Virus record (IMG/VR): IMGVR_UViG_2917881069_000005
Direction: 5' to 3' (one strand)
From: a virus
Taxonomy: Duplodnaviria > Heunggongvirae > Uroviricota > Caudoviricetes
DNA: 34,239 nt
Shown: positions 1,961 through 34,239 of the stretch, in pieces
Layout of the letters: each line of letters starts with the position of its first letter
Numbering within the stretch: the first letter of the stretch is position 1
Notes under the pieces: model-generated
What the model saw: the letters and a program-made list of their open reading frames with translations, nothing else
The model's database searches: none
What the model was told of the DNA's origin: nothing
Position numbers and translations under genes: made by a program

Positions 1961-2433
1961 CACTCCACCTCCTGCTTCGGTTCTTGTATCGGCATCCATC
2001 TGATTACATCGCAATTACTTAGGTTGATGTCATCTCCAAGCCATCCTTGACCTTCAGACCAGCATTGCACGTAATACCCGCCTTCTGTGTCCACTACGCA
2101 CCACTGCGCGTCGTTCGGCATTCGCTCACTACAGCTTATCCAACCATCTGGAGCTACCGGTGCTGGAGGATAGCGATACAACGGAATAACTCGGCGCGGG
2201 TCCGCGTATTTATCTGGCGGACACGGCAATATGTAGCCGCAACCAATCCGCTCGACGTCTCGTAACTCTTCGTCATCAGTCCATGCTATCGGCTCTGCTT
2301 CCAGTGATGCCAGTGCGATACGAAACACATTAGCAAGCAGACTGTTTGACGATTGGTTATCGTGCGCCGGGTCGCTCAGGAAACCAGTGATGAATGATTT
2401 AATCTCCGCGCTTTCTCTGGTAATAGTGGTCAT
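1960..2433 (-). CDS. DUF551-type phage protein
   Basis: 157-aa ORF; C-terminal W-rich region (WISCSERMP...IRWMP) typical of DUF551 in lambdoid early regions. Confidence 0.5.
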   Translation of the reverse strand: MTTITRESAEIKSFITGFLSDPAHDNQSSNSLLANVFRIALASLEAEPIAWTDDEELRDVERIGCGYILPCPPDKYADPRRVIPLYRYPPAPVAPDGWISCSERMPNDAQWCVVDTEGGYYVQCWSEGQGWLGDDINLSNCDVIRWMPIQEPKQEVE

Positions 2434-6221: not shown

Positions 6222-6233
6222 CATAAATATTGA

Positions 6234-6908
6234 TTAGGCCTTTATTTTGTATCTTCTTGGTTTTCCCGAGAAAATCACTGTACCAATTATAGAGCAATTA
6301 CCGTTGATCTTAATGTAAGGTTCAGGCCAGTTTGGGTTTAATGCTTTGAGGTAACGCTGTGTTCCATCTTCTATCAACCGCTTGAAGGTGGTTTCGCCTG
6401 TATCGTGCATCAATGCAATAACGTCGTCACCGTGGCAGGCAGGGACTTCAGGATCAACAAAAATCATGTCTCCCGGGCGGTACTCATCAATCATTGAATC
6501 ACCAATCACCCGCAAGATATAAGTCATTTCGCCACAGGGTACAGGGCAGGGATAAGTTTCTGCTGTGCTCAAATCAACCTCAGAATAGCCAACTTCTTTC
6601 CATGCTCCGGCCTGTACCCATGATATGACAGGGACTAACGTTATTTGTTTGTTAGTGATTGAAACATCAGGTTTTTTTGTGATGTTCGTTGTCTGGTGTT
6701 CTTGATCAAGCCATCCGACAGGCAGGTCGAAACATTTTTCGATGTGCCGTGCCATGCTGTCACCGATATTTTTAGTTGCACCATCTCCCATAAACCTGCT
6801 GGTCTGGGTTGGCTCGCGATCAATCATGGTGGCAAAGGAAGAATTCCCGCCAACACCATCTCTCAGTTTTCTGGCGTTAGACCGCCGGATGTCATGGACT
6901 GTTTTCAT
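6234..6908 (-). CDS. CI-like prophage repressor with LexA-like S24 peptidase domain
   Basis: 224-aa ORF; C-terminal S24 signature (GDSM...GD.IFVDPE, Ser/Lys-dyad-type region); divergent from cro-like gene. Confidence 0.8.
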   Translation of the reverse strand: MKTVHDIRRSNARKLRDGVGGNSSFATMIDREPTQTSRFMGDGATKNIGDSMARHIEKCFDLPVGWLDQEHQTTNITKKPDVSITNKQITLVPVISWVQAGAWKEVGYSEVDLSTAETYPCPVPCGEMTYILRVIGDSMIDEYRPGDMIFVDPEVPACHGDDVIALMHDTGETTFKRLIEDGTQRYLKALNPNWPEPYIKINGNCSIIGTVIFSGKPRRYKIKA

Positions 6909-6998
6909 AATGAAATTAAAACCCTTGTACCGTTAAGGTACAAGTATCTTGAAGGTTCATTTTAATCATGTAATATGTACATCGGAGGTACATATTGT
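6909..6998. promoter_or_regulatory. divergent cI/cro promoter-operator region with two palindromic operators
   Basis: Perfect 21-bp palindrome CTTGTACC-GTTAA-GGTACAAG (about 6923-6943) and ATGTACA-N6-GTACAT (about 6973-6993), the latter overlapping the cro RBS GGAGG. Confidence 0.5.
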
Positions 6999-7199
6999 AT
7001 GAAAGCGTATTGGGACTCTTTAACCAAAGAACAGCAGGGCGAGTTGGCCGGAAAAGTTGGCTCAACACCAGGCTACTTACGGCTGGTTTTCAATGGTTAT
7101 AAAAAAGCCAGTTTTGTGCTGGCTAAAAAACTTGAGCAATGCACGTCAGGTGCAATTACGAAATCTGACTTAAGACCGGATATCTATCCGAAAGATTAA
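6999..7199 (+). CDS. Cro-like HTH regulator (YdaS-like)
   Basis: Start at internal MKAYWD preceded by GGAGG; 66 aa; small HTH protein divergent from repressor. Confidence 0.6.
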   Translation: MKAYWDSLTKEQQGELAGKVGSTPGYLRLVFNGYKKASFVLAKKLEQCTSGAITKSDLRPDIYPKD

Positions 7200-7230
7200 C
7201 AGAACACCTTCAATTTTTAACCACAGAACG

Positions 7231-7794
7231 ATGAGGCTAACCGTGGGTAAGCATCACTGGAAAGTAGAAAAACAGCCTGAGTGGTACGTGAAAGCTGTCA
7301 GAAAAACTATCGCGGCGTTGCCGGGGGGGTACGCTGAAGCTGCTGAGTGGCTGGATGTAACAGAGAACGCTTTATTCAACCGCCTTCGTGCAGATGGCGA
7401 TCAGATTTTCCCGCTGGGATGGGCAATGATTTTACAGCGCGCGGCTGGCACTCACTACATTGCGGATGCTGTCGCACAGTCTGCTGGTGGGGTGTTTGTA
7501 TCGCTTCCTGAAATTGAGGAAGTAGAGAACGCCGATATAAACCAGCGCCTGCTGGAAGTCATCGAACAGATCGGGAGTTACTCAAAGCAGATTCGTTCGG
7601 CAATCGAAGATGGGGTAGTGGAGCCACACGAGCAGACAGCAATTAATGATGAGTTGTATCTGTCAATTTCGAAGCTCCAGGAGCATGCAGCACTGGTCTA
7701 CAAAATCTTTTGCGCTCCAGAAAAGAGTGACGCCCGCGAGTGTGCAGCTCCGGGCGTCGTGGCGTTTTGTGTCTGTGGAGAAACTAACGCATGA
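7231..7794 (+). CDS. YdaT-like protein (proposed CII-type regulator)
   Basis: 187-aa ORF directly after cro; position and sequence character as in Rac-type ydaS-ydaT pairs. Confidence 0.4.
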   Translation: MRLTVGKHHWKVEKQPEWYVKAVRKTIAALPGGYAEAAEWLDVTENALFNRLRADGDQIFPLGWAMILQRAAGTHYIADAVAQSAGGVFVSLPEIEEVENADINQRLLEVIEQIGSYSKQIRSAIEDGVVEPHEQTAINDELYLSISKLQEHAALVYKIFCAPEKSDARECAAPGVVAFCVCGETNA

Positions 7795-8627
7795 ACAGTT
7801 TAACGGCAAATAATCGTTTGTCGCAACAGCTGGTGGTCAGTGTCGCTGAACACCTGTTGTTACGGCATGAATGCAGATTACCAAATCACCTGGCTGTAAG
7901 TAACCACAGAGAACTTTACCTGACTGTGGGGGGCGAGTTGTGCAGGAACTTAACCGCTGGTTTCGTGACGGAAGAGGGCTTTATGTCCATGTTATTCGTT
8001 GGGAGCCAGAAACACAGCGCGTTATCTATCTTCGCAAAGACTACCCGCATGAGTGCTTTAGTCCTTTGTGGAAATTCAGGCGTGATTTTGTTGAGTGTGA
8101 AGGACCACCAGCACATTGATTCTGCCATTCCGGGACGTTACACTGTTCAGGCACCTTATAAAGCGGGTGCCGGGATTGGCGTCCTGGAATTGCATACGGC
8201 GACAATTGGCGCGTTAGCGTCTTTTTTGTTGCTACAACTCAGCTATACCCAAATTATGGTGGGCTGGGTGGGGGCACCGAAAGGTGCGCCGGTTTCCGTA
8301 TGCGCCGGTTACGCCAACCCTGCTCAGTTCACCACCAGCGAAATTGGCGTTTCCGGTGGTGGAAGTTATCCATTGCATACGGAGGCTGCCATCATGGCTA
8401 CTGTCCCAGCCCTCTCTCGTCTGAATGATGACGACTTACATAAACTCAGTTATGTAACAACTGCACTACGTGCTCTGCGCAAGGTAACTCTTTCGGATCC
8501 GCAGGCGCATCAGGTTCTGGTAGAAACCCTTCTTAACTTGCAGGCTGAACGTATTCGTCTGGCGGATAAGGCTAATTTTCATATTCACCGTCTCCTTAAT
8601 ATCAGCGGAGGGCATCGTCATGCTTAA
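7791..8627 (+). CDS. hypothetical protein
   Basis: 278-aa ORF; ATGA overlap with upstream stop suggests translational coupling; no domain recognised. Confidence 0.4.
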   Translation: MNSLTANNRLSQQLVVSVAEHLLLRHECRLPNHLAVSNHRELYLTVGGELCRNLTAGFVTEEGFMSMLFVGSQKHSALSIFAKTTRMSALVLCGNSGVILLSVKDHQHIDSAIPGRYTVQAPYKAGAGIGVLELHTATIGALASFLLLQLSYTQIMVGWVGAPKGAPVSVCAGYANPAQFTTSEIGVSGGGSYPLHTEAAIMATVPALSRLNDDDLHKLSYVTTALRALRKVTLSDPQAHQVLVETLLNLQAERIRLADKANFHIHRLLNISGGHRHA

Positions 8628-8856
8628 TCCGTTGATTCTCAATATTTGCCGTTTGCTTCAGCGTAAAAAAACATCAATTCCTACAGTTGGGCAGTGGTAC
8701 ACCACGCCTGCAGGGCATGTTCTACGTGTTAGCCTGGTTGACCGTGAATGTCAGAAGGTGATTTGTGAACCGCTGGGCCGTAATTACCGCGTCAGTATGC
8801 CGCTTATAGCCTTTCGCTCCGGAAAAAACATGAAGCATCTCGGAGGTGCAGCATGA
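8620..8856 (+). CDS. hypothetical protein (78 aa)
   Basis: ORF track; 8-bp overlap with upstream gene and ATGA overlap with downstream replication gene. Confidence 0.35.
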   Translation: MLNPLILNICRLLQRKKTSIPTVGQWYTTPAGHVLRVSLVDRECQKVICEPLGRNYRVSMPLIAFRSGKNMKHLGGAA

Positions 8857-9671
8857 GTATGGAGCTGATGGTTAAAGCGATGAAAATTCGAGTGGGTAAT
8901 CCATTGCGAAAACTGGTTCTGATCAAGCTGGCTGATAATGCCAGCGATCAGGGTGAGTGCTGGCCCAGCTACCAGCATATTGCTGACCAGTGCGAGATTA
9001 GCAAACGTTCTGTGATGAATCATATTGCGGCCCTTTGTGAGTCCGGGCTGGTAAAAAAAGTCACCCGGAAAGGTGAAAAAGGTAACTCAAGTAATATCTA
9101 TCTCCTTCATCTGGATGGTGCAGGAGATTCACTAGGGGGTAGTGCAAATAATTCACTATCTGGTGCAGCAAATTCACCAGGTAGTGCAGGAGTTGCACCA
9201 GGGGGTAGTGCAGGAGATTCACCCAGAACCAGTCACTCTTTTGAACCAGTCAAAGAATCAGTCAATGAACCAATAGCTTTTGGTGCATCTGCTGATGAGT
9301 CTGTGCGAGTTCGTTCAAACCGACCGGAATACTCTCCGGAGTTTGAGCAGGCATGGCTGGCATATCCCAAACGTGCTGGTGGCAATTCAAAATCTGCAGC
9401 CTTCAAAGCCTGGAAAGCCCGTTTGAATGAGGGGGTAAACCCCGAAACCATGCTGGAAGGTGTGAAACGCTACGCGGGCTGGGTATCTGCGATGGGTAAC
9501 AGTGGCACACAATTTGTGAAACAGGCTGTCACGTTCTTTGGTCCGGATCGTCATTTCGAAGAATCCTGGGAAGTTCCTGCGGTATCTTCAGCCAGACGCG
9601 AGGACCCGTACTTCAAAGCCAGTTACGACAACGTGGACTACAGCCAGATCCCGGCAGGATTCAGGGGGTGA
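8853..9671 (+). CDS. replication initiator, O-like (N-terminal HTH, internal Gly/Ser/Ala linker encoded by iterons)
   Basis: N-terminal LVLIKLADNASDQGECWPSYQHIADQCEISKRSVMNHIAALCESGLV resembles phage replication-protein HTH; repeat array within gene. Confidence 0.6.
   Translation: MSMELMVKAMKIRVGNPLRKLVLIKLADNASDQGECWPSYQHIADQCEISKRSVMNHIAALCESGLVKKVTRKGEKGNSSNIYLLHLDGAGDSLGGSANNSLSGAANSPGSAGVAPGGSAGDSPRTSHSFEPVKESVNEPIAFGASADESVRVRSNRPEYSPEFEQAWLAYPKRAGGNSKSAAFKAWKARLNEGVNPETMLEGVKRYAGWVSAMGNSGTQFVKQAVTFFGPDRHFEESWEVPAVSSARREDPYFKASYDNVDYSQIPAGFRG
9110..9225 (+). repeat. five about 21-24-bp iterons (candidate ori) inside the O-like gene
   Basis: Units GGTGCAGGAGATTCAC / GGGGGTAGTGCAAATAATTCAC / GGTGCAGCAAATTCACC / GGTAGTGCAGGAGTTGCACC / GGGGGTAGTGCAGGAGATTCACC, followed by an A/T-richer stretch with GAACCAGTCA repeats. 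Confidence 0.6.
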
Positions 9672-9673
9672 TC

Positions 9674-10162
9674 ATGAGTCTTTTGAATGAAGTTCAGAAA
9701 TTCATTGAAGCCCATCCGGGGTGTACTTCCGGAGACATTGCGGATGCTTTTACAGGTTACTCACGGCAGCGCGTTCTGCAGTCAGCAAGCAAGTTACGTC
9801 AGAGTGGGCGTGTGGCTCACCGTTGTGAAGGGGATACACGCAGACATTTCCCGCGCCTGACTGAGAGAGCGCAGGAGCCGGAACCACAACCAGTTCGTGA
9901 AACCAGACCTGTGCGCAATTTCTATGTCGGCACTAACGATCCACGGGTGATTTTGTGCCTGACCCGCCAGGCTGAAGAACTGGAGTCAAGGGGCTTATAC
10001 CGTCGTGCTGCAACCGTGTGGATGGCGGCATTCCGTGAAAGCCACTCCCAGCCAGAACGAAACAATTTTCTGGCGCGTCGTGAGCGGTGCTTACGGAAAA
10101 GCAGCAAGCGCGCTGCATCGGGTGAAGAGTGGTATCTGTCAGGGAATTACGTGGGGGCTTAA
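9674..10162 (+). CDS. PerC-like putative transcriptional regulator
   Basis: C-terminal LESRGLYRRAATVWMAA resembles PerC-family motif; ATG 9674 preceded by AGGGGG. Confidence 0.4.
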   Translation: MSLLNEVQKFIEAHPGCTSGDIADAFTGYSRQRVLQSASKLRQSGRVAHRCEGDTRRHFPRLTERAQEPEPQPVRETRPVRNFYVGTNDPRVILCLTRQAEELESRGLYRRAATVWMAAFRESHSQPERNNFLARRERCLRKSSKRAASGEEWYLSGNYVGA

Positions 10163-10815
10163 TGAGTAATAAATATTGCCAGGCGCTGGTGGAACTGCGG
10201 AACAAACCAGTCCATGAACTGAAGGAAGTGGGCGATCAGTGGCGCACGCCGGACAACATTTTCTGGGGAATTAACACCCTGTTTGGCCCGTTTGTTCTGG
10301 ATCTGTTCACTGACGGTGATAACGCCAAATGTGCTGCGTATTACACGGCGGAAGACAACGCGCTGGCGCATGACTGGTCAGAACGTCTTGCGGAGCTTAA
10401 AGGTGCTGCCTTTGGTAATCCCCCATACAGCCGCGCCAGTCAGCATGAGGGGCAATACATCACCGGCATGCGTTACATCATGAAACATGCCAGTGCCATG
10501 CGTGATAAGGGCGGGCGCTATGTTTTCCTGATCAAAGCTGCCACCAGCGAAGTGTGGTGGCCGGAAGATGCGGACCATATTGCTTTTATTCGCGGGCGTA
10601 TTGGTTTTGAACTGCCTGCCTGGTTTATCCCGAAGGACGAGAAGCAGGTGCCGACAGGAGCGTTCTTCGCTGGTGCTATTGCTGTTTTCGACAAGACCTG
10701 GAAGGGACCGGCAATCAGCTACATCGGGCGCGATGAACTTGAGGCATGTGGTGAGGCGTTTCTGGCGCAGGTTCGCCAGCAGGCGGAAAAACTGGTCAGG
10801 GAGATGGCGGCATGA
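10162..10815 (+). CDS. phage-type DNA N6-adenine methyltransferase (Dam-like)
   Basis: NPPY motif (GNPPYSR); start at MSNKYCQ with TAATG overlap; ORF track 10129..10815. Confidence 0.75.
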   Translation: MSNKYCQALVELRNKPVHELKEVGDQWRTPDNIFWGINTLFGPFVLDLFTDGDNAKCAAYYTAEDNALAHDWSERLAELKGAAFGNPPYSRASQHEGQYITGMRYIMKHASAMRDKGGRYVFLIKAATSEVWWPEDADHIAFIRGRIGFELPAWFIPKDEKQVPTGAFFAGAIAVFDKTWKGPAISYIGRDELEACGEAFLAQVRQQAEKLVREMAA

Positions 10816-11138
10816 CGACGTTAACTCAATGCCAGCAGCAGGTGCTGGATATGCTGATTTCTTATCAGAAAGAACGTGGCTTCCCGCCAACCAATCAGGA
10901 GGTGGCAACCATGCTGGGATACCGTTCGGTGAATGCAGCGGTGGAGCATCTTCGCGCACTGGAGAAAAAAGGCGTCATCACGATAAAGCGTGGTGTGGCC
11001 CGGGGGATAACGCTTCATACCGCGGTGAAGGACGACGACAGCGAGGTGGTCGGGATTATCCGCTCACTGCTTGCCGGTGAGGAAAACGCCAGGCTGCGTG
11101 CAGCCCGCTGGTTACATGAGAGGGGCCTGAAAGTATGA
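10812..11138 (+). CDS. LexA N-terminal DNA-binding-domain-like protein lacking the S24 peptidase domain
   Basis: LTQCQQQVLDMLISYQKERGFPPTNQEVATMLGYRSVNAAVEHLRALEKKGVI closely resembles LexA winged-HTH; only 108 aa. Confidence 0.6.
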   Translation: MTTLTQCQQQVLDMLISYQKERGFPPTNQEVATMLGYRSVNAAVEHLRALEKKGVITIKRGVARGITLHTAVKDDDSEVVGIIRSLLAGEENARLRAARWLHERGLKV

Positions 11139-11524
11139 AGCTGATTCTGCCTTTTCCGCCCAGCGTGAACACGTACTGGCGACACCCCAACAAAGGGGCG
11201 TTTGCTGGTAAGAGCCTGATAAGCGCGGCGGGGCGAAAATTCCAGAGCGCGGCGTGCGCTGCAATAGTTGAGCAGTTACGTCGTCTGCCGAAACCAACGT
11301 CGGCACCTGCTTCAGTGGAGATCGTGTTGTTTCCTCCGGATAACCGGATCCGCGATCTGGACAACTATAACAAGGCGCTGTTTGACGCCCTGACCCACGC
11401 GGGTGTGTGGGAAGACGACAGCCAGGTGAAAAGAATGCTGGTGGAGTGGGGACCAGTTATCCCGGAAGGGAAGGTCGAGATCACTATCAGTAAGTACGAG
11501 AAAACGGCGGGTGCAGCCGCCTGA
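11135..11524 (+). CDS. rusA: Holliday junction resolvase RusA
   Basis: 129 aa; RusA signature including DLDNYNKALFDALT. Confidence 0.8.
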   Translation: MKLILPFPPSVNTYWRHPNKGAFAGKSLISAAGRKFQSAACAAIVEQLRRLPKPTSAPASVEIVLFPPDNRIRDLDNYNKALFDALTHAGVWEDDSQVKRMLVEWGPVIPEGKVEITISKYEKTAGAAA

Positions 11525-11543
11525 TTAAGAGGAGAAACGAAGT

Positions 11544-12353
11544 ATGAATAATCTGATGGTCATTGATGGTATTGAAGTTCGTCGTGATGCTTATGGGCGT
11601 TACAGCCTGAACGATCTGCATCGCGCAGCAGTAGCATCTGGTGCAAATGCCAGAACCAAGGAGCCAGGAAAGTTTCTTTCCAGCCAACAAACTGTTGAGC
11701 TTGTTCATGAATTGACCAACACCCAGAATTTGGGTGTTGACCCGGTGAGTGTGATTCATGGGGGAAATGAACGGGGAACGTATGTCTGCAAGGAACTGGT
11801 GTATGCCTATGCAATGTGGATCAGTCCATCATTCCATCTGAAGGTGATCCGTACTTTCGACATGGTAACCAGCGCACCGGATAAATTATCCGGACAGGCT
11901 GCTGACAAGATGCAGGCTGGTGTGATTCTGCTGGACTTTATGCGCCGGGAATTAAACCTGTCTAACTCTTCAGTGCTTGGTGCCTGTCAGAAACTCCAGG
12001 AGGCTGTTGGCTTACCGAATCTGGCACCGCGCTATGCCATTGATGCTCCTGCTGACGCGCCTGATGGCTCAAGCCGCCCCACGCTGTCACTGAGTGCACT
12101 GCTGAAGCAGTATGGTATCCGCCTGACAGCTAATCAGGCATATCACCAGATGGCGAAGCTGGGGATCGTTGAACAACGTGAACGATACAGCCGTACCGCG
12201 ATTAACAACATCAAAAAATTCTGGTCGCTGACGGCGAAAGGCTGCATGTTCGGTAAGAACATCACCAGCCCCGCAAATCCGCGCGAGACGCAGCCGCATT
12301 TCTTCGAATCCCGATTCCCTGAGCTGTTAAAGCTGCTCGATACCGTTCATTGA
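11544..12353 (+). CDS. KilA-N domain protein (antirepressor-like)
   Basis: N-terminal YSLNDLHRAA-type KilA-N signature; 269 aa. Confidence 0.55.
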   Translation: MNNLMVIDGIEVRRDAYGRYSLNDLHRAAVASGANARTKEPGKFLSSQQTVELVHELTNTQNLGVDPVSVIHGGNERGTYVCKELVYAYAMWISPSFHLKVIRTFDMVTSAPDKLSGQAADKMQAGVILLDFMRRELNLSNSSVLGACQKLQEAVGLPNLAPRYAIDAPADAPDGSSRPTLSLSALLKQYGIRLTANQAYHQMAKLGIVEQRERYSRTAINNIKKFWSLTAKGCMFGKNITSPANPRETQPHFFESRFPELLKLLDTVH

Positions 12354-12354
12354 G

Positions 12355-13350
12355 GTGACCGTGAGAGCACTACTGACCCCTGAAATTGCCCCGCGTATGG
12401 GGATCGTATTGTTCAGACCAGGTTCAGAGCTGATGCCCCTGTTTATGCAGGGGCGTGTCCTGCTGGAGCCTGAGCCGGAACGTTATTCATCTTTCGCCAG
12501 TGGTGCCGTTCCGGCGGCATCACAACCGCTGGCGGATGATCCTGCCGTTCAGGCCGTGTTCCGCAATGAGGCAGTGATCCGTCGTGCTGGTGGCGTGGAA
12601 TGTCTTGAAAGCTGGTTACTTCGTGAAAAAGGCTGCCAGTGGCCTCATTCCGACTGGCACAGCGAGAACATGACCACAATGCGACACGCTCCGGGCGCAA
12701 TCCGTCTGTGCTGGCACTGCGATAACCAGCTGCGCGATCAGTTCACGGAACGGCTGGAATCAATGGCAACGGATAACTGTGCCCGCTGGGTGTTGTCTGT
12801 TGTGCGTCGGGATCTCGGTTTTGATGATAGTCACGTTGTGACAATGCCGGAACTGTGCTGGTGGCTGATTCGTAATGATCTGGCGGATGCCTTACCGGAA
12901 AGTGCAGCCCGTAAGGCACTGAGATTACCGAAGCCTGTTGTGCCGTCTGTTACCCGGGAAAGTGACCTTGTGCCTTCGGTTCCTGCCACCAGCATCATCC
13001 AGGATAAAGTGAAAAAGGTGCTGGCGCTGAAAGTGGATCCGGAGTCGCCGGAGTCTTTTATGTTACGCCCAAAACGTCGCCGCTGGGTTAATGAAAAGTA
13101 CACACGCTGGGTTAAGACACAGCCGTGTGCATGTTGTGGTAAGCCTGCTGATGATCCCCACCACCTGATAGGTCACGGTCAGGGTGGAATGGGTACAAAA
13201 GCGCATGACCTCTTTGTGTTGCCTTTGTGCAGAAAGCATCACGACGAGCTGCATGCGGATACCGTGGCATTTGAAGAGAAGTATGGCTCCCAGCTGGAGC
13301 TGATATTTCGTTTTATCGATCGTGCGCTGGCAATTGGCGTGCTGGCCTGA
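12355..13350 (+). CDS. DUF968-type protein with C-terminal Cys/His (HNH-like) motif
   Basis: CACCGKPADDPHHLIGHGQGGMGTKAHDLFVLPLCRKHHDELH; GTG start. Confidence 0.55.
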   Translation: MTVRALLTPEIAPRMGIVLFRPGSELMPLFMQGRVLLEPEPERYSSFASGAVPAASQPLADDPAVQAVFRNEAVIRRAGGVECLESWLLREKGCQWPHSDWHSENMTTMRHAPGAIRLCWHCDNQLRDQFTERLESMATDNCARWVLSVVRRDLGFDDSHVVTMPELCWWLIRNDLADALPESAARKALRLPKPVVPSVTRESDLVPSVPATSIIQDKVKKVLALKVDPESPESFMLRPKRRRWVNEKYTRWVKTQPCACCGKPADDPHHLIGHGQGGMGTKAHDLFVLPLCRKHHDELHADTVAFEEKYGSQLELIFRFIDRALAIGVLA

Positions 13351-13371
13351 TTTTGTGGAGAAAGTTGATGC

Positions 13372-13734
13372 GTGATATTCAAATGGTTCTTGGAACGTTG
13401 GGGGGCATGGGTGGCAAATAATCACGAGGATGTCACCTGGTCGTCTATTGCTGCAGGATTTAAAGGACTAATCCCTTCAAAAGTAAAATCCCGCCCGCAA
13501 TGTTGTGACGATGACGCGATGATCATTTGTGGGTGCATGGCTCGCCTGAAAAAGAACAACAGCGATTTGCACGATTTATTAGTGGATTATTATGTAGGTG
13601 GTATGACGTTTATGGCGCTTGCCCGTAAACATGGGCGTTCTGATTGCTGGGTTGGGCGTTTATTGCAAAAGGCTGAAGGTGTAGTTGATGGCATGTTAAT
13701 GATGTTAGAAATTGAGCTAGAGATGGATCGTTAG
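13372..13734 (+). CDS. late antiterminator Q (short QuuD-type); N-terminus frame-disrupted
   Basis: [27 protein letters not shown] is Q-family-like; long frame can only start at GTG 13372, while a well-placed ATG (13368, GGAG 8 nt upstream) is in another frame and stops after 17 codons. Confidence 0.6.
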
Positions 13735-13776
13735 AAGACCTCTTATTGAGGGGGTAATTGAATCAGTTTAATGTGT

Positions 13777-13807
13777 GGGGAGTCGATTTATTCTCCCCAT
13801 TTTATTT
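13777..13807 (+). terminator. hairpin plus T-rich tract just downstream of Q
   Basis: GGGGAG-N10-CTCCCC followed by ATTTTATTT. Confidence 0.4.
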
Positions 13808-13818
13808 AATTAATTTAC

Positions 13819-14265
13819 TTAAGGTTTTAATTCATCAAGACGTTGTTGGATAGTGTTTTTGCTTGCGTTGTCTGTTATAGCCATTTGTTGTACTTGCCCC
13901 ATTGCCATTTGAGTTTCCATCCACATATCGGCCCACACTTTTGTATCGTTATTAACTTGAGCGATAGTAAATCTGACTTTTGATACCGGGGTTGTTGAAT
14001 AGGCATTGCCGATTAACATTTGTCCAAAAACAGCAGAGCCGCCTTCCAGTTCTTTACCACATATAACACTGCTGTTATCCGCGTTGTAAATTATCAACCC
14101 TCTACTATTGCAGTAATTCACAAGGGCATCTTTGACTTTATCTTTTGTCATATTTTGATAAACCCCCTCAGGTTTTCCTGATTGAGTTTTCTTTATCAAT
14201 GGTACGGAAGAAGTACAACCTGAAATGATAGTTGCGCTAAGTAATAGTACAGTCATTTTATTCAT
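13819..14265 (-). CDS. lipoprotein (moron, opposite strand)
   Basis: 148 aa; signal peptide with lipobox LLSATIISGC; encoded against the direction of flanking late genes. Confidence 0.6.
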   Translation of the reverse strand: MNKMTVLLLSATIISGCTSSVPLIKKTQSGKPEGVYQNMTKDKVKDALVNYCNSRGLIIYNADNSSVICGKELEGGSAVFGQMLIGNAYSTTPVSKVRFTIAQVNNDTKVWADMWMETQMAMGQVQQMAITDNASKNTIQQRLDELKP

Positions 14266-14330
14266 GTTTCTTATCCATTGTTAAGGGCATACCCACACAA
14301 TTATTTTTATTGGAGATGAATAATCAACCG

Positions 14331-14413
14331 TTTACAATCGTAAAAAATCAAATATGCTGTTAAGAGTGGTTACTTCGCCACACAACTTAAACCCGCCGCT
14401 GAGCGGTTTTTTT
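14331..14413 (+). promoter_or_regulatory. candidate late promoter (PR'-like) with short leader and T7-tailed hairpin (tR'-like)
   Basis: TTTACA-N16-TATGCT followed about 40 nt later by CCGC-loop-GCGG and TTTTTTT; weak stem, so tentative. Confidence 0.25.
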
Positions 14414-14511
14414 GTACCTGTAAACTTGGTGCAGTACAGTAAACACGCTGGTGGTCGTGAATACTGACTTTTTATCTTGCTGGCTTTTTAGACAAGAGTT
14501 ATTGGTATGTC

Positions 14512-14739
14512 ATGTTAACCAGAAGGGGAAAAGACATGCTAAAACAGCAAGATATGACAGAAACCGCCGCCGCAGTCCTTCATTTCTTACCTGCTGACAA
14601 GTGGGTAACGCCACGCATGATGACGAGAACTACCGGAGTAAGCGAAGCCCGGTGCCAGTTAATACTGACCCAGTTAGTTCTGGCGGGTCTGGCGAAGGAT
14701 AACGGCGGGTACGGGAATAAATTCAGACGCTGCCAGTAA
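14512..14739 (+). CDS. small hypothetical protein, possibly winged-helix
   Basis: 75-aa ORF; no family recognised. Confidence 0.3.
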   Translation: MLTRRGKDMLKQQDMTETAAAVLHFLPADKWVTPRMMTRTTGVSEARCQLILTQLVLAGLAKDNGGYGNKFRRCQ

Positions 14740-14889
14740 TGGCGGTTTCCTGCTGTGAAAATGGGCGGCTGGTGGGTGTTGGTAGCACCTGCCAGCCATT
14801 CGCTCATGCTTACTGGTCACAAGCGAACCACGGCCCACTGCTTTAGCGCAAAAGCAGAGTGAGCCTACCAGAGTTACGCTTACTGATCC

Positions 14890-15942
14890 ATGAAAAACAC
14901 TGTAAAAATAAACAGCGTTGATTTAATCAACGCTGATTGCCTGCATTTTATTCAGTCCCTGCCTGATGATTCCATTGACCTGATTGTTACCGATCCGCCG
15001 TACTTCAAGGTGAAACCCAACGGCTGGGACAATCAGTGGAAAGGGGACGAAGATTACCTTAAGTGGCTGGATCACTGTCTGGCCCAGTTCTGGCGGGTGT
15101 TAAAACCTGCTGGAAGCCTTTACCTGTTCTGTGGGCATCGCCTGGCATCTGATATTGAGATCATGATGCGTGAACGTTTCAACGTGCTTAACCATATCAT
15201 CTGGGCGAAGCCGTCCGGACGTTGGAATGGGTGTAATAAAGAAAGTCTGCGCGCATATTTTCCTGCCACAGAGCGCGTTCTGTTTGCTGAACATTACCAG
15301 GGGCCATATCGCGGCAAAAGTGACGGCTATGCGGCAAAAGAAAGGGAACTCAAACAGCACATAATGGCACCGCTGATATCGTATTTCAGGGATGCTCGTG
15401 CCGAACTGGGTATAACGGCAAAACAAATTGCCGAAGCCACAGGTAAGAAAAATATGGTTTCCCACTGGTTTGGTGCCAGTCAGTGGCAGTTGCCGAATGA
15501 GGCTGACTATCGGAAGTTACAGGCACTGTTTTCCCGTATAGCGGCAGAGAAGTTTCAGGAACAACAACTGGAACAACCACACCACCAGCTGGTGGCATCT
15601 TATGATTCACTGAATCGCAAATATTCTGAATTGCTGGATGAGTTTAAATCTCTCCGGCGCTATTTCTCCGTATCAGTCTCCGTGCCTTATACCGATGTCT
15701 GGATGCATAAACCCGTTCAGTTCTACCCGGGTAAACATCCGTGTGAGAAACCGGCGGATATGCTCAGGCAAATAATCAATGCCAGTAGTCGACCTGGTGA
15801 GCTGGTTGCTGATTTTTTTATGGGATCCGGTTCCACAATAAAAGCAGCAATGGCGCTGGGGCGTCGGGCCTTAGGTGTTGAGCTTGAGTCAGAGCGGTTT
15901 AACCAGACAGTGAAAGAGATAAACGAGCTGGTGGGGAAATAA
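14890..15942 (+). CDS. DNA methyltransferase, N6_N4 (beta-class amino-MTase) family
   Basis: DPPY motif (LIVTDPPYF) near N-terminus and AdoMet motif FFMGSGST near C-terminus; 350 aa. Confidence 0.8.
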
Positions 15943-15945
15943 TCT

Positions 15946-15973
15946 GGTGGCCACGTCAGGTGGCCTTTTTATT
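15946..15973 (+). terminator. rho-independent terminator between methyltransferase and holin
   Basis: GGCCAC-gtcag-GTGGCC followed by TTTTTATTT. Confidence 0.5.
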
Positions 15974-16009
15974 TCCATTACACAGCACCCGCATCTGCGA
16001 GGTGGGGTT

Positions 16010-16225
16010 ATGAAATCCATGGATAAGTTAACAACGGGTGTCGCCTATGGCACCTCAGCAGGTAGTGCCGGGTACTGGTTTTTACAGTTGCTCGATAAAG
16101 TCACGCCCTCACAGTGGGCGGCAATAGGTGTGCTGGGTAGTCTGGTATTTGGCTTGCTGACGTATCTGACAAACCTTTATTTCAAGATTAAAGAAGACAA
16201 GCGTAAGGCTGCACGGGGAGAGTAA
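16010..16225 (+). CDS. pinholin (phage 21 S21-like) with dual start
   Basis: MKSMDK dual-start motif; closely matches recalled S21 ([17 protein letters not shown]...[13 protein letters not shown]...[20 protein letters not shown]); ORF track 15947..16225. Confidence 0.75.
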
Positions 16226-16229
16226 TTCA

Positions 16230-16544
16230 ATGACTCAAAACTATGAACTGATTGTGAAAGGGATCCGCAATTTTGAGAATAAAGTTACGGTAACTGTAGC
16301 GTTACGGGACAAAAAACGCTTTGACGGTGAAATTTTTGACCTGGACATCTCGCTGGACCGTGTTGAAGGTGCCGCGCTGGAGTTTTATGAGGCAGCAGCC
16401 AGAAGGAGCATCAGACAGGTCTTCCTGGATGTTGCTGCCGGGTTATGTGAAGGGGACGAGCTGTTGCCAGAAACGCGCCCCTGTTCAGAGGCGCGGTATA
16501 CCATAAAAATTAACAGTTCTGATAACTCGATTAAGGGTTGTTAG
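16230..16544 (+). CDS. hypothetical protein inserted between holin and endolysin
   Basis: 104-aa ORF with GGAG upstream; no family recognised. Confidence 0.4.
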   Translation: MTQNYELIVKGIRNFENKVTVTVALRDKKRFDGEIFDLDISLDRVEGAALEFYEAAARRSIRQVFLDVAAGLCEGDELLPETRPCSEARYTIKINSSDNSIKGC

Positions 16545-16599
16545 CTTTTTGCAGTTGGCTTTCCAGTATCTTTCATTGGTAGCATCCTGATAAATATCC

Positions 16600-17598
16600 A
16601 TGAGCGCAAAAATCAAATACGGCCTGTCAGCTGCTGTTCTGGCGCTGATTGCTGCAGGCGCGTCTGCTCCTCAAATACTTGACCAGTTTCTGGATGAAAA
16701 AGAGGGTAACCACACTACGGCATACCGCGATGGTTCCGGTATATGGACCATCTGTCGTGGTGCCACAATGGTGGATGGTAAGCCCGTCATACCGGGAATG
16801 AAGCTGTCGAAGGAAAAATGCGACCAGGTTAACGCTATTGAACGTGATAAGGCGCTGGCATGGGTGGAGCGCAATATTAAAGTACCACTGACCGAACCAC
16901 AGAAAGCGGGTATAGCGTCATTTTGTCCCTATAACATTGGCCCCGGTAAGTGTTTCCCGTCGACGTTTTATAAGCGGCTGAATGCCGGTGATCGTAAGAG
17001 TGCATGCGAGGCGATTCGCTGGTGGATAAAAGATGGTGGGCGCGATTGCCGCATACGTTCAAATAACTGCTATGGACAGGTTATTCGTCGTGACCAGGAA
17101 AGCGCATTAGCCTGTTGGGGGGATAGATCAGTGAGCAGAGTCGCCGCGATTATTTATGCTCTGGTTATCTGCATCATCGTCTGCCTGTCGTGGGCGGTCA
17201 ATCATTACCGTGATAACGCCATCGCCTACAAAGAACAGCGTGATAAAAAAGTCAGTGAGCTGAAGCAGGCGACCGCCACCATTACTGACATGCAGCAACG
17301 CCAGCGTGCTGCTGATGTACTCGATGCTAAATACACGAAGGAGTTGGCTGATGCGAAAGCTGAAAATGATGCTCTTCGGCGCAAGCTTGATAATGGTGGT
17401 CGGGTGCTCGTCAAAGGAAAATGCTCTGTGCCATCCTCAGCCGAAACCTCCAGCGCCTCCGGCATGGGCAATGATGCCACCGTCGAACTCTCTCCAGTTG
17501 CTGGACGAAACGTTCTCGGTATCCGGGACGGAATCATCAGAGACCAGACAGCACTGAGAACGCTTCAGGAATATATCAGGACGCAATGCCTTCGATGA
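16600..17598 (+). CDS. SAR endolysin (T4-lysozyme-type, P21 R-like) whose frame runs without a stop into Rz
   Basis: N-terminal signal-anchor ([18 protein letters not shown]) and lysozyme core ([22 protein letters not shown]); no stop before Rz; G6 run at about 17117-17122. Confidence 0.7.
17131..17598 (+). CDS. Rz: i-spanin Rz
   Basis: [34 protein letters not shown]... nearly identical to recalled lambda Rz; GTG start preceded by GGGGGGA. Confidence 0.75.
17351..17557 (+). CDS. Rz1: o-spanin Rz1 (embedded in Rz, +1 frame)
   Basis: [19 protein letters not shown] lipobox, Pro-rich [12 protein letters not shown]; inside ORF 17306..17557. Confidence 0.7.
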
Positions 17599-17770
17599 TA
17601 GCGATTAATTTTACTCATCATCCTTCACATCTGGCTCTGTAGACAGGGTGGTGATCACTTCTGGAGTGAATCCAGATTAAACATCTCATTGCTGATGCTT
17701 GAAGTTGAGCATCTGGCGCGCGGTAAGGGGCTGCGTTGAAATAAGAGCCAGTCATTACAAATACCAGGAT

Positions 17771-17800
17771 TTAGCCTCGTATTCGCGGGGCTTTTTATTG
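17771..17800 (+). terminator. terminator-like hairpin after the lysis cassette
   Basis: AGCCTCG...CGGGGCT imperfect stem followed by TTTTTATT. Confidence 0.3.
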
Positions 17801-18414
17801 CCATTACAAAAGCCACTCCCTACAGAGTGGCTTTGATAATGGCTTATACCCTACACGGGATAACTTAACTGATATCCCTTTTAACGGATAAAGGTATTCA
17901 AGCCTGACACATCATGCGCTGTATCGTCGCCGTATTCCCGTATTAACAGAGACCGTAGCCCGACGGGGAACTCCTTCTGCGAGAGTGTGCGGGAATAATC
18001 AAAAACGATGCACACCGGGTTTTTACCGCGTTTATGGTTCGCGGGTTTGTCCCTCATGCTCGCCAGTCCTGTGCGGGGGTGGAAGAAACAGGATACTCAC
18101 ACAGATTCTTGTGGGCACGATGCTATTCCTTTCTGGATTATCCCGATGCCATTCATGCAAGGCGCTGTATCAGACGTTCGTCATGGCTGTCAGGCTGACG
18201 GGTCCTCCCGGTGGGGTGGCCTGCCACGGGGCGGGAGCGTCGCGGAAAAAGGCTAGTTTTTGCATTTTTATCGGCCACCATCATCTTTGCATCTTATTGA
18301 TTATTAATGGTTATTTGTTTTTTGTATGTCGAATTGAGTGTTTTTTGTTCGACATCGAACGCGTTTTCTTAAAGTTGTTCGCACGATGCATGTTTAAAGC
18401 TCTCCGGAGGAAAT

Positions 18415-18906
18415 ATGGATCATGAGTTGAAAAACCTGGTGCTGAATATTAATCAACTGGCGGCTTTATCTGGTCTGCACCGCCAGACTGTCGTGGCAAG
18501 ACTGAAAAACATTCGTCCCGCTGGTGGACATGACAAACTCAAGCTATACCGGTTGACCGATATTCTGACTGAATTTATGGGGTTACCACCGCCGGTTGCT
18601 GAGGGCGAAATGGATCCACATGAACGCAAAGCCTGGTATCAGTCTGAACGTGAGCGTCTTAAGTTCGAACAGGAAACGGCACAACTCATTCCGGCCAGTG
18701 ATGTCAGACGGGAGTTTGCCATCTGGGCAAAAGCGGTCGTGCAGGTGCTGGAGACATTACCGGATATTCTGGAACGTGACTGCGGCCTGCAGCCTGCCGC
18801 TGTGAGCCGTGTTCAGTCCATTATTGATGATCTGCGCGATCAGATAGCCCTGCGGGTGACCGAAGCAGGTGCGGATGATGAGGAGGAATTACAGCAGGAG
18901 GAGTAA
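18415..18906 (+). CDS. terminase small subunit (Nu1-like, N-terminal HTH)
   Basis: 163 aa; HTH-like LNINQLAALSGLHRQTVVARLKN; immediately upstream of and overlapping (TAATG) the large terminase. Confidence 0.6.
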   Translation: MDHELKNLVLNINQLAALSGLHRQTVVARLKNIRPAGGHDKLKLYRLTDILTEFMGLPPPVAEGEMDPHERKAWYQSERERLKFEQETAQLIPASDVRREFAIWAKAVVQVLETLPDILERDCGLQPAAVSRVQSIIDDLRDQIALRVTEAGADDEEELQQEE

Positions 18907-21009
18907 TGCTGAATCAGGAAACCGCAAAGGCAGCACGAACCGATTCAGGTTATATCCTTCGCGCACCGAGACGAATGCTGGTTGCTGATGCCGTTGCTCA
19001 GTATATGCGGGTGCCCATGGGGGCCGGGAACTCAGTCCCGTGGGATCCGCTGGTGGCACCGTATGTTATTGAGCCGATGAACTGCCTGGCCTCGCGTGAA
19101 TACGACGCAGTGATATTTGTTGGCCCGGCACGAACTGGCAAGACTATCGGCCTGATTGACGGCTGGGTGATTTACAACGTGATTTGCGATCCTGCGGATA
19201 TGTTGATCATTCAGATGACGGAGGAAAAAGCCCGCGAACACTCCAAAAAAACGACTTGCCAGAACGTTTCGCGTCAGCCCGGAAGTGGTCAGTCGCCTGA
19301 GTCCGAACAAAAATGACAACAACGTTTATGACAGAACATTCCTTGCTGGCAACTACCTGAAAATCGGCTGGCCGTCAGTCAATATCATGTCCTCATCAGA
19401 TTATAAATGCGTGGCGCTGACGGATTATGACCGTTTTCCGGAAGATATTGATGGCGAGGGGGATGCCTTCTCTCTTGCCTCAAAACGTACCACCACATTT
19501 ATGTCCAGTGGTATGACGCTGGTGGAGAGTTCCCCCGGCAGGGATGTGAAGGATGTGAAATGGCGACGGACTTCACCGCATGAGGCTCCACCAACCACGG
19601 GGATACTGTCGCTCTATAACCGTGGCGATCGCCGTCGCTGGTACTGGCCCTGTCCACACTGTGGTGAGTATTTTCAGCCCTGCGGCGATGTGGTTGCTGG
19701 TTTCCGTGATATTGCCGATCCCGTGCTGGCAAGTGAGGCGGCTTATATTCAGTGTCCTTCCTGTTCAGGACGGATTATGCCTGAACAAAAACGTGAGCTG
19801 AACGGACGTGGGGTCTGGTTGCGGGATGGTGAATCCATCAATGCGGATGGCAGTCGTTATGGTGATCCCCGACGCTCACGTATTGCGTCATTCTGGATGG
19901 AGGGTCCGGCAGCTGCTTACCAGACACTCTCGCAACTCGTTTACAAACTGCTTACTGCAGAACAGGAATACGAGACAACCGGAAGTGAAGAAACACTCAA
20001 GACGGTTATCAATACCGACTGGGGATTACCTTATCTTCCCCGTGCCAGCATGGAGCAACGAAAAAGTGAACTGCTTGAACAGCGGGCAGAGCCAGTTCCT
20101 TCCCGCAGTGTGCCGGATGGCGTTAATTTCCTGGTGGCGACAGTTGATGTGCAGGCGGGACGTCATCGCCGTTTTGTGGTTCAGGTAACGGGCTATGGCA
20201 GCCGTGGCGAACGCTGGATTATTGATCGTTACAACATCACGCAGTCATTGCGCGGTGACAGCGACGGGGAGAGCCAGCGAATTGATCCGGCCAGCTATCC
20301 GGAAGACTGGGATGTCCTGCTGACGGATGTTTTTCATAAAAGCTGGCCGCTGGCCTCCGATCCTTCTCAACAAATGCGACTGATGGCAATGGCGGTGGAC
20401 TCCGGCGGTGAAGACGGGGTCACTGATAATGCCTATAAATTCTGGCGTCGTTGCCGTCGTGATGGCCTTGGTAAACGTATTTACCTGTTTAAGGGCGACA
20501 GCATCCGGCGCGCAAAACTGATCACCCGTACATTCCCTGATAACACCGGACGAACGGGCCGACGGGCGCAGGCCGCAGGTGATGTGCCGCTCTGGCTTCT
20601 TCAGACGGATGCCCTGAAAGACCGGGTGAATAACGCGTTATGGCGTGACTCTCCAGGTCCCGGCTATGTGCATTTCCCTGACTGGCTGGGGAGCTGGTTT
20701 TACGACGAACTGACGTATGAAGAGCGGAGTAGTGACGGGAAATGGAGTAAGCCGGGTCGCGGTGCCAACGAAGCTTTTGACCTGATGGTGTATGCCGAGG
20801 CTCTGGTCATTCTGCATGGATACGAAAAGATCCGCTGGCCGGATGCACCGGAGTGGGCGAGCCGGGAAACCTGGCTGGAGTGTGTCCCGGACAGTACCGA
20901 ACCGTCACCCTCACCGGAACCGGTATCCACGCCTGTTAAAAAACAAAAACGGAAGAAAACAGTAACTGACGATGTTAACCCCTGGCTGACTTCCGGAGGA
21001 TGGTTATGA
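18906..21009 (+). pseudogene. A: terminase large subunit (lambda gpA family) split into two frames at an A7 run
   Basis: ORFs 18906..19316 (Walker-A-like VGPARTGKT) and 19285..21009 (WYWPCPHCGEYF, gpA-like); deleting one A in AAAAAAA at about 19245-19251 joins them into one frame reading ...HSKKRLARTFRVSPEVVSRL... Confidence 0.6.
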
Positions 21010-21218
21010 ACCAGAATGATATCGAAGCCATGATTCAGCGTTATACGGAAGCTGAAATGGCGGTGCTGGACGGAAAATCCGTCACCTTTAATGGTCAGCA
21101 GATGACCATGGAAAACTTATCTGAGATCCGGCAGGGACGGCAGGAGTGGGAGCGCCGCCTTGCGGCTCTGATTACACGACGACGGGGGCATCCCGGGTAC
21201 CGGCTGGCGAGGTTCTGA
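21006..21218 (+). CDS. W: head-tail joining protein W-like
   Basis: About 70 aa; ...GRQEWERRLAALITRRRG resembles gpW; GGAGGA upstream; ORF track 21000..21218. Confidence 0.6.
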   Translation: MNQNDIEAMIQRYTEAEMAVLDGKSVTFNGQQMTMENLSEIRQGRQEWERRLAALITRRRGHPGYRLARF

Positions 21219-22726: not shown

Positions 22727-22739
22727 TTCCTGGTTCAGG

Positions 22740-23714: not shown

Positions 23715-23730
23715 TAATGTCTACAACGGG

Positions 23731-24699: not shown

Positions 24700-24721
24700 A
24701 CGTCGCAGACAACAACTCTGA

Positions 24722-24742
24722 TGGCCCGTAAGGGCTTTTTTT
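24722..24742 (+). terminator. hairpin plus T7 after major capsid gene
   Basis: GCCC-gtaa-GGGC followed by TTTTTTT; a second hairpin CAGCCCC-tgaac-GGGGCTG lies at about 24753-24771. Confidence 0.4.
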
Positions 24743-24785
24743 GTACCTGAAATCAGCCCCTGAACGGGGCTGTGCGGAGACAGTT

Positions 24786-25108
24786 ATGGCAAAGAATTTT
24801 GTAGAAGAAGGAAAAACGGTGGCGATTGTTGCCAGTGCAGCCATCAGCAGCGGAGATCTGGTGCAGGTGGGTGATGTTTTGCGGTGGCGCTGACCGATAT
24901 TCCACAGGGTGAAACAGGCGACGGCATGACCGAAGGTGTGTTTATGCTGCCTAAGCTGAAAACGGATGACATGAAAACGGGTAAGAAGGTTTATCTGAAG
25001 TCCGGAAAAGTTCAGCTGACTAACAGCGGCTCTGATCCGCTGGTCGGGGTTGTCTGGGCAGATGCCGGAACCAGTGCAGAAGAAGTGCCGGTAAAACTCA
25101 ATGTCTGA
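24786..25108 (+). pseudogene. small head protein (DUF2190-like), frame-disrupted
   Basis: ATG 24786 with GGAGA RBS opens a 35-codon frame (MAKNFVEEGKTVAIVASAAISSGDLVQVGDVLRWR*) abutting out-of-frame ORF 24884..25108; one added G near 24882 would give a continuous about 107-aa product. Confidence 0.45.
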
Positions 25109-25376: not shown

Positions 25377-25387
25377 AGAGGTATGGG

Positions 25388-31281: not shown

Positions 31282-31980
31282 ATGCAGGATATTCCACAGG
31301 AAACACATCATGAGACGACACGCCTCACTCAGTCAGCCCAGGTGGTGCTCTGGGAAATCGATCTGACAGAGGTCGGTGGTGAACGTTATTTTTTCTGTAA
31401 TGAGCAGAACGAAAAAGGTGAGCCGGTTACCTGGCAGGGGCGGCAGTATCAGGCATACCCCATTCAGGGGACGGGATTTGAACTGAACGGCAAGGGCAGT
31501 GCTGCCCGTCCGACACTGACGGTTTCTAACCTGCACGGAATGGTCACCGGGATGGCGGAAGACCTGCAGAGTCTGGTCGGCGGAACGGTGGTCAGGCGTA
31601 AGGTTTACGCCCGTTTTCTGGATGCGGTGAACTTCGTCAACGGAAACAGTGACGCCGATCCGGAGCAGGAGGTGATCAGCCGCTGGCGCATCGAGCAGTG
31701 CAGCGAACTGAGCGCGGTCAGTGCCTCTTTTGTACTGTCCACGCCGACGGAAACGGACGGTGCTGTTTTTCCGGGGCGCATCATGCTGGCTAATACCTGC
31801 ACCTGGACCTATCGCGGTGATGAGTGCGGTTATCACGGTCCGGCTGTCGCTGATGAATATGACCAGCCGACGTCCGATATCACGAAGGATAAATGCAGCA
31901 AATGCCTGAGTGGTTGTAAGTTTCGCAATAACGTCGGCAACTTTGGCGGCTTCCTTTCCATTAACAAACTTTCGCAGTAA
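31282..31980 (+). CDS. L: minor tail protein L
   Basis: 232 aa, near-identical to recalled lambda gpL including C-terminal Cys cluster. Confidence 0.85.
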   Translation: MQDIPQETHHETTRLTQSAQVVLWEIDLTEVGGERYFFCNEQNEKGEPVTWQGRQYQAYPIQGTGFELNGKGSAARPTLTVSNLHGMVTGMAEDLQSLVGGTVVRRKVYARFLDAVNFVNGNSDADPEQEVISRWRIEQCSELSAVSASFVLSTPTETDGAVFPGRIMLANTCTWTYRGDECGYHGPAVADEYDQPTSDITKDKCSKCLSGCKFRNNVGNFGGFLSINKLSQ

Positions 31981-33333: not shown

Positions 33334-34239
33334 ATGGGTAAAGGCAGCAGTAAGGGGCATACCCCGCGCGAAGCGAAGGATAACCTGAAATCCACGCAGT
33401 TACTGAGTGTGATCGATGCCATCAGCGAAGGGCCGATTGAAGGTCCGGTGGATGGATTAAAAAGCGTGCTGCTGAACAGTACACCGGTGCTGGACAGTGA
33501 GGGGAATACCAACATCTCCGGTGTCACGGTGGTGTTCCGGGCAGGTGAGCAGGAGCAGACACCGCCGGAGGGTTTTGAATCCTCCGGTTCCGAGACGGTG
33601 CTGGGTACGGAAGTGAAATACGACACGCCGATCACCCGGACCATCACGTCTGCAAACATCGACCGTCTGCGCTTTACCTTCGGTGTGCAGGCACTGGTGG
33701 AAACCACCTCAAAGGGTGACCGGAATCCGTCGGAAGTCCGCCTGCTGGTTCAGATACAACGTAACGGTGGCTGGGTGACAGAAAAAGACATCACCATTAA
33801 GGGCAAAACCACGTCGCAGTATCTGGCCTCGGTGGTGGTGGATAACCTGCCGCCGCGACCGTTCAATATCCGGATGCGCAGGATGACACCGGACAGCACA
33901 ACAGACCAGCTGCAGAACAAAACGCTCTGGTCGTCATACACCGAAATCATCGATGTGAAACAGTGCTACCCGAACACGGCACTGGTCGGCGTGCAGGTGG
34001 ATTCGGAGCAGTTCGGCAGCCAGCAGGTGAGCCGTAATTATCATCTTCGCGGGCGCATTCTGCAGGTGCCGTCGAACTATAACCCGCAGACGCGGCAATA
34101 CAGCGGTATCTGGGACGGGACGTTTAAACCGGCATACAGCAACAACATGGCCTGGTGTCTGTGGGATATGCTGACCCATCCGCGCTACGGCATGGGGAAG
34201 CGTCTCGGTGCGGCGGATGTGGACAATGGGCGCTGTATG
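33334..34239 (+). CDS. J: tail tip / host specificity protein J (5' part; continues beyond window)
   Basis: Hand-translated open frame to window end: MGKGSSKGHTPREAKDNLKSTQLLSVIDAISEGPIEGPVDGLK... near-identical to recalled lambda gpJ N-terminus; absent from ORF track because no stop in window. Confidence 0.85.
   Translation, partial: MGKGSSKGHTPREAKDNLKSTQLLSVIDAISEGPIEGPVDGLKSVLLNSTPVLDSEGNTNISGVTVVFRAGEQEQTPPEGFESSGSETVLGTEVKYDTPITRTITSANIDRLRFTFGVQALVETTSKGDRNPSEVRLLVQIQRNGGWVTEKDITIKGKTTSQYLASVVVDNLPPRPFNIRMRRMTPDSTTDQLQNKTLWSSYTEIIDVKQCYPNTALVGVQVDSEQFGSQQVSRNYHLRGRILQVPSNYNPQTRQYSGIWDGTFKPAYSNNMAWCLWDMLTHPRYGMGKRLGAADVDNGRCM

Follow-up and report, generated by a model that had tools for sequence, protein, structure and literature searches.

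The frameshift in the Q antiterminator gene of an Escherichia prophage is very probably a sequencing error

The Q gene and its neighbourhood

The DNA analysed here (the window) is a stretch of 34,239 nucleotides that corresponds to positions 49384-83622 of contig PDIG01000039.1 (assembly GCA_004745185.1), ends at the contig end and is identical to the contig over the 16,353-base overlap that was compared. Both the tape-measure protein and the LexA-like protein are on record from this NCBI contig only. The genes around Q are arranged in the order RusA, KilA-N, DUF968, Q, methylase, holin, lysozyme, Rz and terminase, and Q lies between the early genes (replication/nin-type) and the lysis and morphogenesis operon, as is the case for the Q21/Q933W-family genes of lambdoid phages. 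The coordinates of Q, of its immediate neighbours and of all uncompensated single-base insertions and deletions discussed below are listed in Table 1.

Table 1. Features of the Q locus and single-base indels of the prophage (positions in the window)
Feature	Position	Strand	Basis
DUF968/HNH-like gene of 329 aa, intact and conserved on the left side of Q	12361..13350	+	Pfam
Native Q start and short out-of-frame reading	13368..13421	+	Translation; CDS of relatives begin at the equivalent ATG
Rest of the Q frame (Q21/QuuD family, PF06530), GTG-initiated ORF of 120 aa	13372..13734	+	Mechanical ORF listing
Lesion in Q, GG in place of the single G of relatives (run length 1 to 2)	13392..13393	+	Alignment with relatives
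Terminator-like hairpin with T-rich tail, between Q and the convergent 148-aa gene	13777..13796	+	Consensus scan only
148-aa gene, convergent with Q	13819..14265	-	ORF
1-nt insertion (G5 to G6) in the lysozyme gene, close to its 3' end	17117	+	BLAST; NCBI calls no lysozyme
1-nt insertion (T to TT) in a small 50-aa gene overlapping the end of Rz	17605	+	BLAST
1-nt insertion (A6 to A7) dividing the gene for the terminase large subunit (18906..19316 and 19285..21009)	19245	+	BLAST
1-nt insertion (AA to AAA) splitting the ClpP-protease/major-capsid fusion gene	23707	+	BLAST; no NCBI gene call
1-nt deletion (T5 to T4) splitting the DUF2190 (Phage_cement_2) gene	24876..24877	+	NCBI fragments of 50 and 74 aa
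1-nt deletion at or just past the stop codon of tail gene L	31978..31979	+	Protein unaffected
1-nt deletion (AAA to AA) in tail-tip gene J; the contig ends 14 nt further on	34224..34225	+	BLAST

The Shine-Dalgarno sequence of Q, read from the sequence, is GGAG at 13357..13360 on the plus strand and is the same in the aligned relatives. An earlier note on this DNA had placed it 8 nt upstream of the ATG at 13368: the motif is present, but the spacer is 7 nt. The reading frames, on the other hand, are as that note had described them: translation from ATG 13368 gives 17 sense codons followed by TAA at 13419-13421, the long Q frame of the ORF listing is +1 relative to this frame, and the earliest start open to the long frame is GTG 13372, with TGA at 13366-13368 closing the upstream side. 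The distance between GTG 13372 and the GGAG is 11 nt. According to the annotated CDS of the relatives, the first eight codons from ATG 13368 are the true N-terminus of Q. The GTG-initiated product of 120 amino acids has no record in any assembly (lookup in an index of 153 billion genes) and the NCBI annotation of PDIG01000039.1 calls no Q protein at 13372..13734.

Downstream of Q, the protein encoded by the convergent 148-aa gene has a lipoprotein-like signal (MNKMTVLLLSATIISGC...) and no Pfam match, and its gene is kept beside this type of Q in many prophages. Consensus scans alone give two promoter-like sites (14311-14338 and 14331-14358, the latter TTTACA-16-TATGCT) and, downstream of these, a hairpin resembling a terminator (14395-14407, T7 tail); the predicted sites at 14311-14420 may be the late promoter and the first terminator on which Q would act. 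An ORF of 37 amino acids in the same region (14354..14467) is an annotated gene in phages PhiR40_1 and PhiR55_1, and is probably not a gene.

The antiterminator slot (13351-13818) is mosaic across relatives (L011-L020, L051-L057 and L066-L075). Following the same DUF968 gene, it holds either the 121-aa PF06530 Q with the convergent 148-aa gene, or a DUF1133+PF06530 protein of 192 amino acids with an AAA-ATPase gene behind it, or an antiterminator of 250 amino acids that belongs to PF03589. The left end of the prophage (window 1-1045) encodes a SocA_Panacea-domain protein (157 aa) and a partner of 182 aa: PhiR55_1 has a YafM/YafO toxin-antitoxin pair where the window has these two genes, and the region may be a swapped toxin-antitoxin or defence cassette.

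One extra G in an otherwise intact gene

The 1-nt insertion that the earlier note had implied near 13390 was located by base-by-base alignment to three relatives (E. coli 510016, phage PhiR40_1 and strain CFSAN064035). It consists of one extra G at 13392/13393, where the window reads CTTGGAACG and the relatives read CTTGAACG; window position 13392 is position 62,775 of PDIG01000039.1. The alignment of the Q region has this one gap column only and is otherwise 99-100% identical, which is not a chance pattern. In the relatives, the annotated CDS opens at the equivalent ATG and encodes a 121-aa 'antiterminator Q family protein' (WP_001204819.1).

When positions 13340-13740 (401 bases) were compared by megablast with 5,426 complete E. 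coli genomes and with phage records, 3,475 of the genomes and 71 phage records proved to contain homologues of the Q region. All 40 E. coli matches listed span 400 bases of DNA for the 401-base query, and so do the two full-length phage matches, PhiR40_1 and PhiR55_1. The insertion allele is absent from the top matches listed among these 3,475 genomes and 71 phage records, and a scan for its exact pattern returned nothing from either IMG/VR or the GTDB representative genomes.

With the extra G removed, the protein has the QuuD-type identity that had been proposed: it is related to phage 21 Q and 85% identical to QuuD (P0051), and it matches the full profile of Pfam PF06530 (Phage_antitermQ; positions 1-118 of 118, 173.5 bits at a cut-off of 26, E = 1.8e-51). 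The Q ORF as deposited matches positions 7-118 only (159.6 bits, E = 3.7e-47). An NCBIfam search gave no match for Q. The N-terminus that the earlier note had given for QuuD-type proteins is also borne out, as about 115 of 120 homologue cluster representatives begin with (M/A)RDIQxVL directly before ERWGAW. None of the 120 begins at the equivalent of the GTG, which would have refuted the reading of the note, and none begins with MIFKWFL.

The closest known system is QuuD (YbcQ) of the cryptic prophage DLP12 of E. coli K-12: the 85% identity extends over 99% of the length, the N-terminus and the PF06530 domain are the same, and the size is similar (127 aa versus 121 aa here). The differences are in the C-terminal tail, which is shorter and different here, and in the genomic context, which is a remnant in DLP12 and a complete lambda-like prophage of the PhiR40_1/PhiR55_1/mEp460 type here; in addition, the gene deposited here has the 1-nt insertion at codon 9. 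Among solved structures, the repaired Q is closest to phage 21 Q (phmmer against the PDB, 6p18_P and 6jnx_P, E = 7.5e-9; structures 6P18, 6P19, 6P1A-C, 6JNX and 6JNY). Residues 8-89 align to Q21 residues 20-102, with LERWGAW aligning to LELWGAW at Q21 residues 20-26, and phmmer detected no likeness beyond residues 8-89. Both genes have the same position upstream of the late genes, but Q21 has 162 amino acids, with 12 extra N-terminal residues and a longer C-terminus.

PF06530 was assigned to the Q21/Q933W family by Yin, Kaelber and Ebright (10.1101/651190). In phage 21, Q is loaded onto RNA polymerase that has paused close to the late promoter, where its torus/nozzle narrows the RNA-exit channel and keeps terminator hairpins from forming (10.1101/651190). 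Judged by homology, the Q of the window is an ordinary and very common antiterminator of the QuuD/Q21 family in an ordinary lambda-like prophage.

A near-identical prophage with an intact Q gene is present in GCA_014468455.1 (L062). It is 99.65% identical to window positions 6229-25663, and none of its 63 mismatches falls between 12 and 14 kb. Gaps relative to the window are exactly six, at 13392, 17117, 17605, 19245, 23707 and 24877, and the genes for Q (121 aa), lysozyme (177 aa), terminase (700 aa), the protease-capsid protein (675 aa) and the DUF2190 protein (107 aa) are all intact. Across 9,240 codons, the repaired window differs from PhiR55_1 by 382 synonymous and 136 nonsynonymous changes and has no genuine nonsense codon: the sole 'stop' coincides with a mosaic junction at which the two sequences have different cro alleles. 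Within Q there is a single synonymous difference and no other. Thus, by these codon comparisons, the repaired genes look to be under purifying selection and intact save for the single-base indels. Neutral decay that had lasted long enough for seven frameshifts would not be expected to leave such a picture.

Single-base indels in the prophage and in host genes

The lesion in Q is not the only one of its kind. The whole window was compared by BLAST with the prophage of E. coli PEC301 and with phage PhiR55_1, and isolated 1-nt indels relative to both were taken. When each of seven sequences was counted in turn, the window had 10 private indels, eight of them uncompensated. Five clean relatives had none each, despite up to 122 private substitutions, and the UTME-12 prophage, flagged as frameshifted by PGAP, had 20. 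Besides Q, six uncompensated indels hit genes, namely those for lysozyme, a small ORF, terminase, the protease-capsid protein, the DUF2190 protein and J; in tail gene L, the ORF (31282..31980) still encodes 232 amino acids despite the deletion. The insertion in the lysozyme gene creates an artificial lysozyme (R)-Rz fusion ORF of 332 amino acids (16600..17598). NCBI calls no protein for Q, lysozyme, the terminase large subunit or the protease-capsid gene. The terminase site resembles that of Q: over a stretch of 701 bases, an identity of at least 99% is reached by 547 E. coli records, all eight top matches listed span 700 bases, and the insertion is absent from the top matches listed among the 2,082 matching genomes.

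Several other differences were considered as errors and rejected. The indels at 29288 and 29295 compensate each other within a divergent patch: the tape-measure frame is restored after two codons (29288-29314), and the protein of 1018 amino acids is called intact by NCBI. From its surroundings, amid private substitutions, the pair is real local divergence. Two extra bases relative to E. coli relatives, at 6134 and 6222, lie in non-coding DNA downstream of a cI-like repressor gene; the sibling clade II strain, E2748, has both, and they are therefore genuine lineage variants. Counts of private substitutions (188, then 163, relative to six relatives) were uninformative by themselves, as so small a set cannot establish which substitutions are private; the count for each relative in turn and the near-identical prophage L062 served in their place.

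In the prophage of E. coli UTME-12 (NZ_CP157095.1, L006), many genes are flagged as frameshifted by PGAP. It has nineteen private insertions of 1-3 nt between positions 22605 and 27320 of the trimmed locus that lie about 523 bp apart (for example 22605, 23128, 23653, 24175, 25225, 25748, 26270, 26794 and 27318); these strikingly periodic insertions are an artefact of assembly or polishing, in a genome that RefSeq lists as 'complete'.

The contig of the window belongs to PDIG00000000, the genome of the Escherichia cryptic clade II strain E2661, which was sequenced by Ion Torrent only (PMC6639607). Reads were single-end, of 35-400 nt and at 40x, and were assembled with MIRA and SPAdes (SRX3260346; PMC6639607). 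Only two contigs have a record of a rare DUF551 protein, encoded near the left end (window 1963-2433, minus strand): the NCBI contig with its host flank (L058) and the Logan contig SRR6148326_608 (L059). From the 0-mismatch identity of the two contigs and the rarity of the protein they share, and not from metadata, we infer that run SRR6148326 is strain E2661.

The flanking host DNA is broken in the same way as the prophage. NCBI calls no gene in L058 where other genomes all have plsB and ubiA: plsB, which encodes 807 amino acids elsewhere, is present in the E2661 contig as three ORFs of 261, 152 and 424 amino acids, and ubiA as two, the split genes spanning L058 16434-19946. Relative to the sibling strain, the breaks are isolated 1-nt indels at L058 17216, 17620 and 19821, two in plsB and one in ubiA, and these host genes lie within 8 kb of the prophage. 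The density of frameshifts is about three in 8 kb of host DNA and eight in 34 kb of prophage. In E. coli, plsB is essential. With two real frameshifts in plsB, a strain could not be grown in LB, and the plsB lesions are therefore errors. The insertion in Q forms one population with the plsB and ubiA indels.

The Logan contig SRR6148326_608, from an independent assembly, has no mismatch to the NCBI contig in 7,552 bases. The two are set apart by a single 1-nt indel in dgkA, a gene that is intact in the NCBI version, and the Logan contig terminates exactly at the site of a plsB indel. In the sibling Ion Torrent genome E2748, plsB is broken too, by a change from A5 to A6 (L036:5478), and the Ion Torrent genomes of the E2661/E2748 project probably hold many false pseudogenes. 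Of the 12 indels of the E2661 NCBI contig (eight in the prophage, three in plsB and ubiA, and the dgkA site at which NCBI and Logan disagree), 11 are changes in the length of a base run; this bias is supportive only, since real slippage mutations show the same bias.

Origin of the extra base

Flow-based sequencing miscounts the lengths of base runs. We consider it highly probable that the additional G at 13392/13393 arose as an error in the consensus of the Ion Torrent draft and is not a mutation of the phage, because of the Ion Torrent source, the broken essential host genes, the uniqueness of the allele, the intact near-identical prophage and the pattern of selection. The flow sequencing would have read G as GG, and the reads or the real DNA would carry a single G. 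The suggestion of the earlier note that Q may be non-functional or made from the GTG is unsupported, given the 40x Ion Torrent draft, the broken plsB and ubiA genes, the seven other indels and the intact prophage in GCA_014468455.1.

The indels of the window resemble the homopolymer artefacts of Ion Torrent and 454 data that PGAP flags as 'frameshifted': here, too, they are isolated changes of one nucleotide in run length, about every 3-4 kb, hit essential as well as non-essential genes, are absent from near-identical genomes and vary between assemblies of the same reads. The Q site differs from the classic error in a long homopolymer in that its run changes only from one to two, which is no difference in kind. 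Nevertheless, some points weigh against an error: a change from G to GG is the shortest possible change in run length and less typical than those in long homopolymers; the NCBI consensus is right at dgkA and hence not always the wrong one; and prophages do gain real frameshifts.

If the extra G is an error, the real prophage most probably has an intact Q gene of 366 nt that starts at ATG 13368 and encodes a 121-aa antiterminator of the Q21/QuuD family. By homology with phage 21 Q, this protein would load onto RNA polymerase paused near the late promoter, and, by analogy with the same protein, its nozzle on the RNA-exit channel would block terminator hairpins and the genes for lysis and morphogenesis would be switched on. 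The biological weight of the finding is slight, as both the Q gene and the prophage are ordinary. There is, however, reason for caution with the contig: with a single-base indel every 3-4 kb or so, all frame breaks, pseudogenes, fusions and splits in the window are suspect until checked against reads, and the 332-aa lysozyme-Rz fusion ORF and the split terminase are artefacts like the frameshift in Q.

Should the extra G instead be real, Q would be a pseudogene, there would be no late antitermination, and the E2661 prophage would be defective, producing neither lysis nor particles; it would be just one more defective prophage. The insertion does stand in the deposited consensus, NCBI calls no Q protein, and other odd or truncated versions of Q are on record (for example P0012, P0083, P0096 and P0100). 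Frameshifted Q genes and cryptic lambdoid prophages are, moreover, common in Escherichia, which also counts for a real mutation. Yet lesions of the same type and density are found in essential host genes, where they are impossible as real mutations in a cultured strain, and seven frameshifted phage genes with no nonsense codon, IS element or deletion would be an unlikely form of decay. Substitutions are mostly synonymous, the 99.65%-identical prophage is intact, and the allele is found in no other sequence searched. A genuine pseudogene is therefore unlikely.

Less likely by far is a real extra G with Q still being made, either from GTG 13372 or by a +1 slip, for which the G6 run at 13400-13405 was proposed as the site; the outcome would be a low dose of an altered antiterminator. 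The spacing of 11 nt between GTG 13372 and the GGAG is within the workable range, the frame is open from 13369, the GTG product retains most of the PF06530 profile (positions 7-118), and a slip on GGGGGG, worked out from the sequence, restores all but three residues. However, the GTG would share its ribosome with a competitor, ATG 13368, which is better spaced and is also the stronger start codon. The segment that would be replaced, RDIQxVL, is the one conserved in about 115 of 120 homologue clusters, and it corresponds by alignment to residues 12-19 of Q21, within the part that is ordered in the crystal (residues 7-156). The site is not conserved, the allele being unique, and lacks a stimulatory element typical of programmed +1 frameshifting. 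All evidence for an artefact at this base applies here equally.

It is scarcely credible that a real G with a little variant Q, made by the slip at 13400-13405 or from GTG 13372, is a recoding throttle on the lysis switch of a domesticated prophage. A programmed +1 frameshift of the prfB kind, or a native GTG start, was rejected: the CUU-GGA site, as read from the sequence, has neither an in-frame stop nor a Shine-Dalgarno-like element, the homologues initiate at the ATG, and the shifted arrangement occurs in this one sequence alone.
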